Both the position numbers and the translations under genes were made by a program. DNA of 60,030 nt from the NCBI RefSeq assembly GCF_003334405.1, contig NZ_QOWM01000020.1, one strand, 5' to 3'. The stretch comes from Escherichia coli (GTDB lineage: Bacteria > Pseudomonadota > Gammaproteobacteria > Enterobacterales > Enterobacteriaceae). Each line of letters opens with the position of its first letter. Within the stretch, counting starts at the first letter, position 1. Shown in pieces: positions 4,652-60,030 of this stretch. The notes under the pieces are model-generated. The model was not told the origin of the DNA. It saw only the letters and a program-made list of their open reading frames with translations, and made no database searches.

Positions 4652-5578
4652 TTAACTGCGTGGGTTGCCGAAAATTTCTAAAAATCCGCTGATTTCCGGC
4701 CTGCGCTGGGTAAACAAGGTCACAATATCTTCTACCGCTTTGCCGCTGCCAAATTTGCGCCATGCCAGACTCAATGGCGAAGGAGGGCGCATCGTTGGGA
4801 TTACCCGGCTGACCAGTTGTTGATTATCGATCATTGACTGGCAAAGCGATTTTGGCAAAAAACCAATGCCAACGCCCGCCAGATGGGCGGCGATTTTCGT
4901 TTCCATATCGGGAACAATAATCTCTTTTTGCCCTGGCAATCGCCAGGCGACGCGTTTGGTTAAGGTGCGGGCGCTGTCTTCAATATTGACCGCCGGAAAG
5001 CGCCGCAACTGCGCTTCTGTTAGCGGCTCTTCAACGTTCGCCAGCGGATGATCCGCCGCCATGACAAAGCGCCATTGCACCGATCCTAAGGGATCAAGAC
5101 TAAAGGTATTTGCCAGCGCCTCAGTTCCCGTGACGCCGATAGCCAGCGAAAAACCTTCGTACAATAGCGAGTCCCAGACGCCCATATAGATTTGTCGGGA
5201 GATGTGAAACTGGGTAAAGGGGTAACGCTCATTCAGCCACGCCAGCAACTGGGCGACGGCCTGGGGGTTGTAGAGCAGGTTGTTGATGACAATATTCACC
5301 TGGCGTTCCACGCCATCATTCACCTGTTGCAGCTCGCTTGGCATACTTTCCAGCCAGCTCAGCCAGTCTCTGGCCTGGGAAAGTAGATGCTCGCCAGCCG
5401 CTGTCAACGTCACGCTGCGAGTCGTACGGAAAAACAGCGCTACTCCGGTATTCTCTTCCAGAAGTTTAATGCGATAACTGATCGTCGCCGTGGTTTTACA
5501 TAATCGTTCTGCCGCTTTTGAAAAACTTCCTGTTTCAGCAACCGCAATGAAAGTCCGCAAGGTTTCTGGATCGAACAT
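4652..5578 (-). CDS. allS: LysR-family transcriptional activator of allD
   Basis: 308 aa; N-terminal LysR HTH ([33 protein letters not shown]); divergent to allA. Confidence 0.9.
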
Positions 5579-5685
5579 CTTCAGGTATCCCCTTTTAAAT
5601 CCGCAAGTTGCGTGATTTTCTTATCCTCTGATTTATCAGTATTTTTACATGATAACCCTGTTCAATTTGTGGACTAAATCTAGTT

Positions 5686-5702
5686 TTGGAAAAATATTCC
5701 AA
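5686..5702. promoter_or_regulatory. Candidate AllR operator in the allS-allA intergenic region
   Basis: Near-perfect palindrome TTGGAAAAATATTCCAA; a paralogous palindrome lies upstream of gcl. Confidence 0.55.
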
Positions 5703-5807
5703 CTTTTGTATTGATGTTGTTCTCTTAAGGTTTTAGATTGCCTGTTATTGAAACCAAGCTGACCGGTCGGCGGTGGTTGAACGGAATTATGTTACAAGGA
5801 CAAAAAG

Positions 5808-6290
5808 ATGAAACTTCAGGTATTACCGTTAAGTCAGGAAGCCTTTAGTGCTTATGGCGACGTAATCGAAACGCAGCAACGGGATTTTTTCCATATTAAC
5901 AATGGCCTGGTGGAGCGTTACCACGATTTGGCGCTGGTTGAGATTCTTGAGCAAGACCGTACGCTTATCAGCATTAACCGCGCGCAACCGGCGAATCTGC
6001 CGCTGACCATTCACGAACTCGAACGTCATCCGCTGGGTACTCAGGCCTTTATCCCGATGAAAGGTGAGGTGTTTGTGGTGGTCGTGGCGTTAGGTGACGA
6101 CAAACCAGACCTGTCAACGCTGCGGGCGTTTATCACCAACGGCGAACAGGGAGTGAATTACCATCGTAACGTCTGGCATCACCCACTTTTCGCCTGGCAG
6201 CGCGTCACCGATTTTCTGACCATCGATCGCGGCGGCAGTGACAACTGTGATGTTGAAAGTATTCCTGAACAGGAACTCTGTTTTGCGTGA
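5808..6290 (+). CDS. allA: Ureidoglycolate lyase
   Basis: 160 aa; synteny between allS and allR. Confidence 0.9.
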
Positions 6291-6367
6291 CGCCTGCAAC
6301 CGACTTGCATAAGATAAACTAATTGTTCATTGTTTATGCTCACTTGTAGGTCGGAGTTAACGTAGGT

Positions 6368-7183
6368 ATGACGGAAGTTAGACGGCGCGGCAGGCCAGGA
6401 CAGGCGGAGCCTGTGGCACAGAAGGGCGCACAGGCGTTAGAGCGGGGAATTGCGATTCTGCAATATTTGGAAAAAAGTGGGGGAAGTTCGTCGGTTAGCG
6501 ATATTTCTCTCAATCTGGATTTGCCGCTCTCCACGACCTTTCGCTTGCTGAAGGTTTTACAGGCAGCGGATTTTGTCTATCAGGACAGTCAATTAGGCTG
6601 GTGGCATATAGGATTAGGTGTCTTTAACGTCGGTGCGGCGTACATCCATAACCGCGATGTCCTCTCCGTCGCCGGGCCGTTTATGCGCCGCCTGATGTTA
6701 CTTTCCGGCGAAACGGTCAATGTCGCGATCCGTAACGGCAATGAAGCGGTATTAATTGGTCAGTTAGAGTGTAAATCGATGGTCAGGATGTGTGCGCCAC
6801 TGGGCAGTCGTCTGCCACTGCATGCTTCCGGTGCGGGCAAAGCGCTGCTTTATCCGCTGGCGGAAGAGGAGTTGATGAGCATCATTCTGCAAACCGGTTT
6901 GCAGCAGTTTACGCCAACTACGCTTGTGGATATGCCCACCTTGCTGAAGGACCTGGAACAAGCGCGTGAACTGGGCTATACCGTAGATAAAGAAGAGCAT
7001 GTTGTAGGTCTGAATTGCATAGCTTCAGCAATTTACGATGATGTCGGTAGTGTTGTTGCCGCTATCTCCATCTCCGGGCCTTCATCAAGACTGACAGAAG
7101 ATCGTTTTGTCAGTCAGGGTGAGCTGGTCAGAGACACCGCCCGCGATATCAGCACGGCGTTGGGACTGAAAGCACATCCATAA
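6368..7183 (+). CDS. allR: IclR-family repressor of the allantoin regulon
   Basis: 271 aa; IclR-type N-terminal HTH and C-terminal effector domain. Confidence 0.9.
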
Positions 7184-7195
7184 TGTCTGTCGCAT

Positions 7196-7220
7196 CCCGC
7201 TCTGCGGAGCGGGTTTTTTT
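7196..7220 (+). terminator. Rho-independent terminator after allR
   Basis: GC stem CCCGCTC-tgcg-GAGCGGG followed by a run of seven T. Confidence 0.6.
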
Positions 7221-7235
7221 GACAAAATTTGAAAG

Positions 7236-7252
7236 TTGGAAAAATTTTCCAA
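7236..7252. promoter_or_regulatory. Candidate AllR operator in the gcl promoter
   Basis: Perfect palindrome TTGGAAAAATTTTCCAA about 20 bp upstream of the gcl start. Confidence 0.6.
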
Positions 7253-7272
7253 TAAATAGAGGTAGGAATAAA

Positions 7273-9054
7273 ATGGCAAAAATGAGAGCCGTTGACGCGG
7301 CAATGTATGTGCTGGAGAAAGAAGGTATCACTACCGCCTTCGGTGTTCCGGGAGCTGCAATCAATCCGTTCTACTCAGCGATGCGTAAGCACGGCGGTAT
7401 TCGTCACATTCTGGCGCGTCATGTGGAAGGTGCTTCGCACATGGCGGAAGGTTATACCCGCGCAACGGCAGGGAATATCGGCGTATGTCTGGGGACTTCC
7501 GGTCCTGCGGGCACGGACATGATCACCGCGCTCTATTCCGCTTCTGCTGATTCCATTCCTATTCTGTGCATTACCGGCCAGGCACCGCGCGCCCGTCTGC
7601 ATAAAGAAGATTTTCAGGCCGTAGATATTGAAGCAATTGCTAAACCGGTCAGCAAAATGGCGGTTACAGTTCGTGAAGCGGCGCTGGTGCCTCGCGTGCT
7701 GCAACAGGCATTTCACCTGATGCGTTCTGGTCGTCCGGGTCCGGTACTGGTGGATTTACCGTTCGACGTTCAGGTTGCGGAAATCGAGTTTGATCCTGAC
7801 ATGTACGAACCGCTGCCGGTCTACAAACCTGCTGCCAGCCGTATGCAGATCGAAAAAGCTGTAGAAATGTTAATCCAGGCCGAACGTCCGGTGATTGTTG
7901 CCGGGGGCGGGGTAATTAATGCTGACGCAGCTGCACTGTTACAACAGTTTGCTGAACTGACCAGCGTTCCGGTGATCCCAACGCTAATGGGCTGGGGCTG
8001 TATCCCGGACGATCATGAACTGATGGCCGGGATGGTGGGTCTGCAAACCGCGCATCGTTACGGTAACGCAACGCTGCTGGCGTCTGACATGGTGTTTGGT
8101 ATCGGTAACCGTTTTGCTAACCGTCATACCGGCTCGGTAGAGAAATACACCGAAGGGCGCAAAATCGTTCATATTGATATTGAGCCGACGCAAATTGGTC
8201 GCGTGCTGTGTCCGGATCTCGGTATTGTCTCTGATGCTAAAGCGGCGCTGACACTGCTGGTTGAAGTGGCGCAGGAGATGCAAAAAGCGGGTCGTCTGCC
8301 GTGTCGTAAAGAATGGGTCGCCGACTGCCAGCAGCGTAAACGCACTTTGCTGCGCAAAACCCACTTCGACAACGTGCCGGTGAAACCGCAGCGCGTGTAT
8401 GAAGAGATGAACAAAGCCTTTGGTCGCGATGTTTGTTATGTCACCACCATTGGTCTGTCACAAATCGCTGCGGCACAAATGCTGCATGTCTTTAAAGACC
8501 GCCACTGGATCAACTGTGGTCAGGCTGGTCCGTTAGGCTGGACGATTCCGGCTGCGCTAGGGGTTTGTGCCGCTGATCCGAAACGCAATGTGGTGGCGAT
8601 TTCTGGCGACTTTGACTTCCAGTTCCTGATTGAAGAGTTAGCTGTTGGCGCGCAGTTCAACATTCCGTACATCCATGTGCTGGTCAACAACGCTTATCTG
8701 GGGCTGATTCGTCAGTCACAACGCGCTTTTGACATGGACTACTGCGTGCAACTCGCTTTCGAGAATATCAACTCCAGTGAAGTGAATGGCTACGGTGTTG
8801 ACCACGTAAAAGTAGCGGAAGGTTTAGGTTGTAAAGCTATTCGGGTCTTCAAACCGGAAGATATTGCGCCAGCCTTTGAACAGGCGAAAGCCTTAATGGC
8901 GCAATATCGGGTACCGGTAGTCGTGGAAGTTATTCTCGAGCGTGTGACCAATATTTCGATGGGCAGCGAACTGGATAACGTCATGGAATTTGAAGATATC
9001 GCCGATAACGCAGCGGACGCACCGACTGAAACCTGCTTCATGCACTATGAATAA
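7273..9054 (+). CDS. gcl: Glyoxylate carboligase (tartronate-semialdehyde synthase), ThDP enzyme
   Basis: 593 aa from ATG 7273 ([19 protein letters not shown]); the track ORF starts 30 codons upstream, inside the terminator/operator region. Confidence 0.9.
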
Positions 9055-9066
9055 GGGAGATAAATA

Positions 9067-9843
9067 ATGTTACGTTTCTCTGCTAATTTATCGATGTTAT
9101 TTGGAGAATATGATTTTCTCGCCCGTTTTGAGAAAGCTGCGCAGTGTGGTTTTCGCGGCGTTGAATTTATGTTTCCTTATGACTACGACATTGAAGAATT
9201 AAAACATGTGCTGGCGAGTAATAAACTCGAACATACGCTGCACAATTTACCGGCGGGTGACTGGGCGGCGGGGGAGCGCGGTATTGCCTGTATTCCTGGC
9301 CGTGAAGAAGAGTTTCGGGATGGCGTAGCAGCAGCGATTCGTTATGCCCGTGCGCTGGGTAATAAAAAAATTAACTGTCTGGTCGGTAAAACGCCGGCTG
9401 GTTTCAGCAGTGAACAGATTCACGCAACGCTTGTAGAAAACCTGCGTTATGCCGCGAATATGCTGATGAAAGAAGATATTTTATTACTGATTGAACCTAT
9501 TAACCATTTTGATATTCCTGGTTTCCATCTCACCGGAACTCGGCAGGCGCTGAAATTGATTGATGATGTTGGTTGCTGCAATTTGAAAATTCAGTATGAC
9601 ATTTATCATATGCAGCGGATGGAAGGTGAATTAACCAACACCATGACTCAGTGGGCTGATAAAATTGGTCACCTGCAAATTGCCGATAATCCGCATCGCG
9701 GCGAACCGGGAACCGGAGAAATTAATTATGATTATCTCTTTAAGGTAATCGAAAATTCTGACTACAACGGTTGGGTTGGGTGTGAATATAAACCCCAAAC
9801 CACCACGGAAGCCGGTTTACGCTGGATGGATCCGTACCGTTAA
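9067..9843 (+). CDS. hyi: Hydroxypyruvate isomerase
   Basis: 258 aa; TIM-barrel xylose-isomerase-like; synteny. Confidence 0.9.
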   Translation: MLRFSANLSMLFGEYDFLARFEKAAQCGFRGVEFMFPYDYDIEELKHVLASNKLEHTLHNLPAGDWAAGERGIACIPGREEEFRDGVAAAIRYARALGNKKINCLVGKTPAGFSSEQIHATLVENLRYAANMLMKEDILLLIEPINHFDIPGFHLTGTRQALKLIDDVGCCNLKIQYDIYHMQRMEGELTNTMTQWADKIGHLQIADNPHRGEPGTGEINYDYLFKVIENSDYNGWVGCEYKPQTTTEAGLRWMDPYR

Positions 9844-38064: not shown

Positions 38065-38095
38065 TCACGCGATTACACCGCATTGCGGTATCAAC

Positions 38096-38172
38096 GCGCC
38101 CTTAGCTCAGTTGGATAGAGCAACGACCTTCTAAGTCGTGGGCCGCAGGTTCGAATCCTGCAGGGCGCGCCA
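38096..38172 (+). tRNA. argU: tRNA-Arg (anticodon UCU)
   Basis: 77-nt cloverleaf GCGCCCTTAGCTCAGTTGGATAGAGC...CTTCTAAGTCG...GGTTCGAATCCTGCAGGGCGCGCCA with anticodon loop cuUCUaa and encoded CCA. Confidence 0.9.
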
Positions 38173-57463: not shown

Positions 57464-57832
57464 TTAGCCTGGACGCACTCTTTTTTGATCGCGTTTAGCC
57501 AGACCATCAACCACCAGATTCCACGAATCGTTGATCAGATCGCGAAGTAACGCTTCGGAGATTTCTTCGCCGGGATACACTGAAATCCAGTGCTTTTTAT
57601 TCATGTGATACCCTGGCTTAATGCTTGGGTATATTTGCTGATTTAACAGGGATTTTTGTGGATCGGACTTCAGATTGATAAAGGGGACGCCGCGTAGCTC
57701 CGACGACAGCATAAAAATCTTGCCGCCAATTTTAAAAACATCGAACTCCGGGCCAAAAGGCCAGCAAAGCTCGACAAAGGGTAACTCAAGGGCCAGGCGT
57801 TTCGCCGTTTCGTGCAGTGATTGCTTATCCAT
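57464..57832 (-). CDS. ybdF: Conserved protein YbdF (DUF419)
   Basis: ~122 aa from [18 protein letters not shown]. Confidence 0.75.
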
Positions 57833-57896
57833 AAACGTTCCTTTAGGCGAAGGAGAATAAGCAAAGTATGCCGCGAAGTACGGCGATAATCGACGT

Positions 57897-58145
57897 TTAA
57901 TCCGCCAGCGAGAACCAGCGTCGCCAGATAAAGCGCAGAACAAAATACTCAATAGCGCCCAGCACTAAAAACCACAGACAAAACAATAAAGTGTAAAGCT
58001 GACTAAGATCCATCAGATGGAACATGGTCACCAGTTTTTGTGCCAGCGCCAGCCCCAGTGCGGGGGCGGGCAGCAGCAGGCAAGAGAGGAAAGCCATCAG
58101 CAAAATGCCTGCTGCGGTGGTCAAGGTTTCTAAAGGGTGTTTCAT
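57897..58145 (-). CDS. ybdJ: Small inner-membrane protein YbdJ
   Basis: 82 aa, two hydrophobic helices. Confidence 0.7.
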
Positions 58146-58210
58146 AACATTGTTAAATGTAAGTTAAAACACCATTGTCAGGGATATTCTTCTGTAAGGC
58201 AATTCCCGGC

Positions 58211-59338
<1,128 letters not shown>

Positions 59339-59639
59339 TTATGTTGGCGTTTTCTATTCAGTATAGAAGTCGGAGCGGCTGGGCGAGATGCGGAAGTTCT
59401 GGAATGTTTCTTTTTTTTGGTGATGGTGAACTGATGGTGCCTGAAGCAATTTGGCTACTTTTGCAATGTGACAAGTTATGGCAGTGCTGACTGGTGGCGA
59501 AGAATTTTGACGATTGAGTCATGCAGAAAAAAACGGGTTCAGCTTCAGTTGATTAAATGAGGAGTGAGAAGTCCGAAACAGGACTCACTGTATAAATAAA
59601 CAGCTATTTTGTTGAGGAAGGGTAAGATAACGGCGGGTG

Positions 59640-59705
59640 CCTGAAGCTTTCCGGTTTCAGGTTTACTCTGAGGTCTGGAAAGATGAAGCCCCAGGAGATA
59701 TTTCT
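59640..59705 (-). ncRNA. sokE: Putative Sok-type antisense RNA (sokE), position approximate
   Basis: Inferred only from hok/sok architecture (antisense to the mok leader/start); no independent signal seen in the sequence. Confidence 0.2.
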
Positions 59706-59781
59706 ATCAACCCTGGGGCTGCCACTCCAAACCCGAACAATTTGGATGGTAGTCCCTTCTTCGCATGGAGGCAATATAAAC

Positions 59782-59934
59782 ATGCTGACGAAATATGCCC
59801 TTGCGGCAGTCATAGTGCTGTGTTTAACGGTGCTGGGATTTACGCTTCTGGTCGGAGACTCGCTGTGTGAGTTTACGGTGAAGGAACGTAATATTGAGTT
59901 TAAGGCTGTTCTCGCTTACGAACCGAAGAAGTAG
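59782..59934 (+). CDS. hokE: Hok-family type I toxin (small membrane peptide)
   Basis: 50-aa [53 protein letters not shown]; the in-frame upstream extension (59683) corresponds to the mok-like leader ORF. Confidence 0.85.
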
Positions 59935-59955
59935 CCGTTGTGCGGGGAGTAATCC

Positions 59956-60030
59956 CATAAGCGCTAACTTAAGGGTTGTGGTATTACGCCTGATATGATT
60001 TAACGTGCCGATGAATTACTCTCACGATAA
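59956..60030 (+). mobile_element. insL: IS186 left end (partial; element continues beyond the window), including the first codons of its transposase
   Basis: CATAAGCGCTAACTTAAGGGTTG... terminal sequence, then ATG AAT TAC TCT CAC GAT AA (MNYSHD...) at 60011. Confidence 0.65.

Follow-up and report, generated by a model that had tools for sequence, protein, structure and literature searches.

What reads the two near-identical 17-bp palindromes that lie in the control regions of the allantoin and glyoxylate genes of Escherichia coli, and does it read them as one system? The sites were noticed in a 60,030-nucleotide stretch of E. coli DNA (hereafter, the window) by a first-pass annotation, which proposed them as candidate operators of AllR flanking the allR gene. 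The genes and sites concerned are as follows.

4652-5578, minus strand: allS, LysR-type activator (NCBIfam NF007501, 644 bits; annotation)
5686-5702, read on the plus strand as TTGGAAAAATATTCCAA: allS-allA palindrome, with one arm mismatch
5808-6290, plus strand: allA, ureidoglycolate lyase (NCBIfam NF002948; annotation)
6368-7183, plus strand: allR, IclR-family repressor (NCBIfam equivalog NF007548 AllR; RefSeq annotation)
7236-7252, read on the plus strand as TTGGAAAAATTTTCCAA: gcl palindrome, a perfect 8-1-8 palindrome
7273-9054, plus strand: gcl, glyoxylate carboligase, first gene of the gcl operon (TIGR01504, 1283 bits; annotation)

Annotation and curated family models are concordant for allS, allA, allR, and gcl, and they agree with the gene context that had been given for both sites. 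The allR product scores 619 bits against NF007548 (cutoff 406), and its residues 95-271 match PDB entry 1TF1 with E = 2e-110. The upstream palindrome falls within the 229-bp divergent region between allS and allA, whereas the downstream copy ends 20 bp before the gcl ATG; both sites are therefore located in the control regions of AllR-repressed units (allS, allA, and the gcl operon). The description of the sites as flanking allR needs a small change, since they do enclose a block that holds this gene, but the block is allA-allR rather than allR alone.

The window represents the E. coli chromosome. The 2.1-kb stretch with the two sites matches many E. coli chromosomes at 100% identity and was found in 5405 of 5426 complete E. 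coli genomes, and the window as a whole is about 99% identical to strain 4/2-1 across positions 1-57485. Several features of the wider context were recorded in passing. The hyi gene (9067-9843) is an intact 258-aa open reading frame in the window and is annotated as frameshifted in strain 4/2-1. Around positions 38080-38160 the window is collinear with the reference strain, where envY directly follows tRNA-Arg with no prophage between them. Beyond position 57485 (to 60030) the window runs into ybdF-ybdJ-ybdK, while strain 4/2-1 carries IS26 there and the best-matching genomes carry IS150 in the region 57486-60030; the window has no IS150. Finally, two of the 5416 E. coli matches to the allS-gcl stretch are on records labelled as plasmids.

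Both palindromes were confirmed on the plus strand exactly where they had been reported. They differ by a single base at position 11, which is A in the allS-allA copy and T in the gcl copy. The first copy, which ends in ATTCCAA, departs from the formula previously given for the pair, TTGGAAAA(A/T)(A/T)TTTCCAA. Allowing at most one mismatch to the pattern TTGGAAAANTTTTCCAA, we found two matches in the 60-kb window, namely these two sites, against 0.01 expected, and none of 100 shuffled sequences had two or more such matches. Generic 8-1-8 palindromes with at most one mismatch are frequent (39 across the window), so that the signal lies in the shared sequence, and palindromy alone would be insufficient. 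A lone half-site TTGGAAAA also occurs at 6467-6474 within the allR coding sequence; lacking a partner arm, it probably arose by chance.

The identity of the pair follows from comparison with published sites. The AllR motif of E. coli is given as KTTGGAAWAWTWTTCCAAC in a tabulation that cites Rintoul et al. 2002 (PMC8222616, Table 1). Taken with its flanks, the allS-allA site (5685-5703) matches this motif without mismatches and the gcl site (7235-7253) with one, while 0.03 matches are expected in shuffled sequence. In addition, a 2026 paper gives AAATCTAGTTTTGGAAAAATATTCCAACTTTTGTATT as the AllR recognition site after Rintoul et al. 2002 (PMC13300388). The same paper describes a lux reporter driven by an AllR-repressed gcl promoter fragment, which we placed in the window through the 3' ends of primers PgclinsF and PgclinsR. 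These two published segments correspond to the following positions.

5676-5712: the 37-bp AllR recognition stretch as quoted in PMC13300388, identical to AAATCTAGTTTTGGAAAAATATTCCAACTTTTGTATT and enclosing the palindrome 5686-5702
7184-7265, plus strand: the 82-bp AllR-repressed gcl promoter fragment of the lux reporter (by primer mapping)

The allS-allA site is thus identical in sequence with a delimited AllR site, as quoted at second hand by PMC13300388. AllR binding and the response to effectors at these sites are as reported by others: AllR binds to the allS-allA control region and to the gcl promoter, glyoxylate acts as the inducer that relieves binding, and allantoin acts as a co-repressor (PMC12535856; bioRxiv 10.1101/2024.03.11.584432). 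Repression of allS and allA by AllR is likewise documented (PMC12535856), and an AllR ChIP-seq map with in vitro binding energies has been published (PMC12059191). The earlier statement that AllR is known to repress both control regions accordingly agrees with the literature, and the EMSA and footprinting experiments that the first-pass annotation had suggested have already been performed, according to the cited work.

The cross-genus distribution of the sites was analyzed in loci collected with the AllR protein, and not the motif, as the query, using one genome per species. This search yielded 22 loci with an AllR 66-100% identical to that of E. coli and one locus with a distant homologue (28%). 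Nine genera are represented: Escherichia, Superficieibacter, Klebsiella, Raoultella, Citrobacter, Buttiauxella, Izhakiella, Atlantibacter, and Providencia. Every allS-allA region contained in the orthologous loci has one site with at most two mismatches, and so does every gcl upstream region contained in them; no further sites were found at up to three mismatches in these loci of about 8.8 kb. The locus of the distant homologue has no AllR-type site. The gene for the cognate regulator is therefore present and strictly co-conserved with the sites. In intergenic alignments of 19 species, scored as mean identity to E. coli per 17-column window, the palindrome is the most conserved window both between allS and allA (0.96 versus 0.51 for the remainder) and in the allR-gcl spacer (0.94 versus 0.59). 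Across genera, the allS-allA site lies 92-106 bp from the allA ATG and the gcl site 12-27 bp from the gcl ATG, with a hairpin and T-run always ahead of the latter site. One record in this collection (CACSKA010000001.1, labelled Chryseobacterium sp. 18061) holds the allS-allA-allR-gcl locus in its usual enterobacterial form, with an AllR 86% identical to the E. coli protein, and its gene coordinates and both operators match those of a record labelled Citrobacter sp. 18056; the former is probably mislabelled or contaminated.

Based on the fit to the published motif, the quoted recognition site, and the co-occurrence with allR in nine genera, we are highly confident that AllR, the IclR-family repressor encoded between the two palindromes, has its operators in them. 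The word "candidate" is too weak for them, since they are established AllR operators that had been published before. In organism, genes, and sequences they are the AllR operators of the E. coli allantoin regulon (Rintoul et al. 2002, as represented in the later sources above), and nothing of substance differs; what is added here is the cross-genus statistics and a conserved asymmetry at the allS-allA site, described below.

The same collection of 41 orthologous sites indicates how the palindromes are read. Positions 1-6 and 12-17 (TTGGAA/TTCCAA) are almost invariant, and positions 7-11 vary. At the central position 9, A and T interchange freely in both operators; at positions 7, 8, 10, and 11 the changes are one-sided and break the symmetry, and no compensatory double changes were observed among the 41 sites. 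Fixed arms, a drifting center, and the lack of compensatory changes fit a protein site and do not fit an RNA stem. Such a pattern of substitutions is characteristic of a dimeric helix-turn-helix protein reading two half-sites, and each helix-turn-helix of an AllR dimer would read one TTGGAA half-site.

How AllR could act at the gcl operator depends on the closely packed signals between allR and gcl, all on the plus strand.

7196-7220, plus strand: intrinsic terminator of allR (stem CCCGCTC/GAGCGGG, loop TGCG, seven T)
7219-7224, plus strand: predicted candidate -35 element of gcl, a consensus-like TTGACA overlapping the end of the T-run
7229-7234 and 7253-7258, plus strand: TTGAAA and TAAATA, a predicted alternative candidate promoter pair for gcl
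7259-7262, plus strand: GAGG, ribosome-binding site of gcl

The terminator scan placed a Rho-independent terminator directly after the allR stop codon, composed of a hairpin (7196-7213) with a 7-bp stem of six G-C pairs and a T-run (7214-7220); its RNA fold has an energy of -18.8 kcal/mol (z = -3.8). The hairpin and T-run are present in all genera, although the stems of Buttiauxella, Atlantibacter, and Providencia differ in sequence while continuing to pair. From the end of the terminator to the gcl operator there are 15 bp, and the adjacency of the two elements remarked on previously is anatomically correct. A functional coupling of the allR terminator, or of read-through at it, to the gcl operator would be hypothetical. 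The first two bases of the perfect -35-like TTGACA are the last two T of the T-run (window positions 7214-7224), and a T-run followed by TTG is retained in most genera. Because these elements share bases, the allR terminator and the next promoter would physically overlap. The operator is located between the -35-like TTGACA and the ribosome-binding site and so would cover the spacer, the -10 element, and the start region. Since the palindrome fills this region with either candidate -35 element, bound AllR would exclude RNA polymerase and might, in addition, serve as a roadblock to read-through arriving from allR. The only hit of a promoter scan, at 7246-7274, was rejected, as it overlaps the gcl start codon and would leave no leader. 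For RutR, to which the literature ascribes a site ahead of the gcl operon, no box was found in the allR-gcl spacer (7184-7272) at up to four mismatches, and matches elsewhere were at chance level.

For the allS-allA control region, two promoters are proposed from the sequence.

5711-5739, plus strand: putative allA promoter (TTGATG at 5711-5716, 17-bp spacer, TAGATT at 5734-5739)
5649-5654, minus strand: putative allS -10 element, TATCAT

Both putative allA hexamers are within conserved alignment columns, and A2 and T6 of the putative allS -10 element are retained in nearly all genera, as read by eye from the alignment; neither proposed promoter was among the results of a consensus promoter scan. 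With these assignments, the operator center (5694) would be at about -52 from each predicted start, midway between the divergent promoters. The quoted 37-bp recognition stretch touches both predicted -35 regions; this would account for the control of two divergent promoters from a single site. In this respect the region resembles the general class of single operators shared by back-to-back promoters, with the distinction that the symmetric placement near -52 comes here from predicted hexamers and not from mapped starts. By the mechanism that we infer from these promoter positions, AllR on its operators would sterically block RNA polymerase at three promoters. According to the literature, glyoxylate, which AllA produces and Gcl consumes, releases AllR and thereby derepresses allA, allS, and the gcl operon. 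A point against the steric part of this mechanism is that a center near -52 would be upstream of the core promoter, which is unusual for simple steric repression.

The same intergenic region contains a second conserved element, a 22-bp block (TGATTTATCAGTATTTTTACAT, 5629-5650) between the allS start codon and the AllR operator, which is conserved nearly as strongly as the operator and contains no AllR-like sequence. This block may be the allS promoter or the initial transcribed region; alternatively, the nitrogen-responsive regulator of allS that PMC12535856 mentions may have its site here. A comparison with the AllS-controlled allD-fdrA intergenic region gave weak A/T-rich similarity only, and a common element was rejected.

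Are the two operators used independently, or does one AllR molecule hold both? The tetramer is said to be the active form of AllR, a report attributed to Walker et al. in 2006. A single palindrome per control region, combined with a reportedly tetrameric repressor, makes it conceivable that one tetramer (a dimer of dimers) occupies both operators at once across a distance of 1550 bp, loops out allA-allR, and thereby represses cooperatively. Several observations are consistent with such bridging. Each control region has one recognizable palindrome, with no second copy at up to three mismatches in the window or in the orthologous loci, and the second AllR-like palindrome about 20 bp from either operator that a tetramer model predicts was not found; the abutting sequence TTGACAAAATTTGAAAG was considered for this role and rejected, since it has six mismatches and is not conserved. 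Tandem sites 18-22 bp apart serve tetramers in more than half of the IclR-family groups (PMC8222616), and the AllR effector domain crystallizes with four chains (1TF1). Regulators of the same family such as TtgV, also dimers of dimers, bind tandem palindromes 18-22 bp apart center to center (PMC8222616); in contrast, the AllR regions carry one palindrome each, with no tandem partner in any genus. The order operator-allA-allR-operator is also kept in all genera, with a spacing of 1541-1636 bp. However, conserved gene order alone could explain this arrangement, and the spacing differs among loci by as much as 95 bp and shows no clear helical phasing. The 37-bp recognition stretch, as quoted in PMC13300388, suggests that a second dimer contacts flanking DNA locally. 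Moreover, the isolated 82-bp gcl fragment is still described as AllR-repressed when placed elsewhere in the chromosome (PMC13300388). No mention of AllR-mediated DNA looping was found in the accessible literature, and on balance we regard bridging of the two operators as unlikely.

The single-base difference between the operators is itself conserved. Position 11 of the allS-allA operator (5696) is A in 17 of 20 species, and position 11 of the gcl operator (7246) is T in 20 of 21. Judged from the sequences, this hints at different, selected affinities. A combined scheme can be imagined in which a bridging tetramer acts together with this asymmetry, so that allS/allA and gcl would be derepressed at different glyoxylate levels; we consider it doubtful, to the same degree as bridging itself.

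A second possibility is that the sites are, or also are, operators of the paralogous repressor IclR (consensus TGGAAATNATTTCCA), which would create cross-talk between the glyoxylate shunt and allantoin utilization. The resemblance is real. The IclR box of the aceBAK and iclR promoters (TGGAAATNATTTCCA; PMC8222616) is, like the AllR sites, an A/T-rich palindrome with GGAA/TTCC arms, and in both systems the repressor site overlaps a promoter and the repressor is glyoxylate-responsive (for both proteins, bioRxiv 10.1101/2024.03.11.584432). The proteins are close paralogues, as AllR scores 248 bits on the IclR model and matches IclR structures with E = 1e-44. Relative to the IclR consensus, the cores have two mismatches (gcl) and three mismatches (allS-allA). 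Nevertheless, the AllR motif fits better, with zero and one mismatches, and three mismatches to the IclR box are also reached at four unrelated places in the window, which makes a match of this level unspecific. The two kinds of sites further differ in their inner bases (AAAT-N-ATTT versus AAAA-N-TTTT; two or three mismatches) and regulon, and the AllR sites have an additional conserved outer T/A pair. The AllR sites accompany allR in every locus, the literature attributes them to AllR, and the genes that they precede are not aceBAK or iclR, so that we do not count them among IclR boxes. An IclR operator at these positions is very improbable, although judged by sequence alone some cross-recognition by IclR is conceivable, the gcl site being two mismatches from its consensus.

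Even less probable is that the palindromes act as nucleic acid structures, either as an RNA hairpin in the gcl leader (an attenuator or stability element) or as a DNA cruciform. The gcl copy is close to the gcl start codon and as RNA can make an 8-bp hairpin (-6.5 kcal/mol, z = -2.45). Against this, the hairpins are weak (-4.4 to -6.5 kcal/mol), the arms TTGGAA/TTCCAA are fixed in sequence beyond what pairing alone would demand with no compensatory changes, and the same sequence is conserved in the allS-allA region, where by the predicted promoters it would be upstream of both transcription units. An Rfam search returned no family match apart from a sub-threshold eukaryotic lncRNA, and with a weak fold and no covariation the sites do not qualify as a structured cis-regulatory RNA.

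The notion that they are functionless chance palindromes in A/T-rich intergenic DNA, to which the 39 generic palindromes and the relaxed search (at up to three mismatches to the pattern, 7 of 100 shuffles reached at least two matches) might lend some color, is excluded by the stringent shuffles, by conservation at fixed positions in nine genera where the surrounding intergenic DNA is only 51-59% conserved, and by the fit of both copies to the published motif, and we give it practically no weight.

Within E. coli, short-query searches recovered the sites of these established AllR operators in 5404-5405 of 5426 complete genomes, and five divergent variants were examined individually. In the variants examined, the gcl site differs at the central base alone. 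In a rare allele of strain A8 (NZ_CP028766.1, 1344878-1344964), an arm of the allS-allA operator is mutated (TTGGAAAAATATCCCAA), along with several flanking changes. This allele might leave allS and allA less strongly repressed by AllR in the lineage concerned.

Published descriptions of the sites, their repressor, its effectors, and the target promoters go back to 2002, and all are covered by standard regulatory databases and by recent ChIP-seq and affinity studies. The value of the present result is therefore that of a positive control, in which true operators were recovered from raw sequence, and the cross-genus data provide a clean example of a phylogenetic footprint. Two modest questions follow: why a tetrameric repressor of the IclR family works with single operators here, and whether the order in which its targets are derepressed may be tuned by the asymmetry conserved in one operator.
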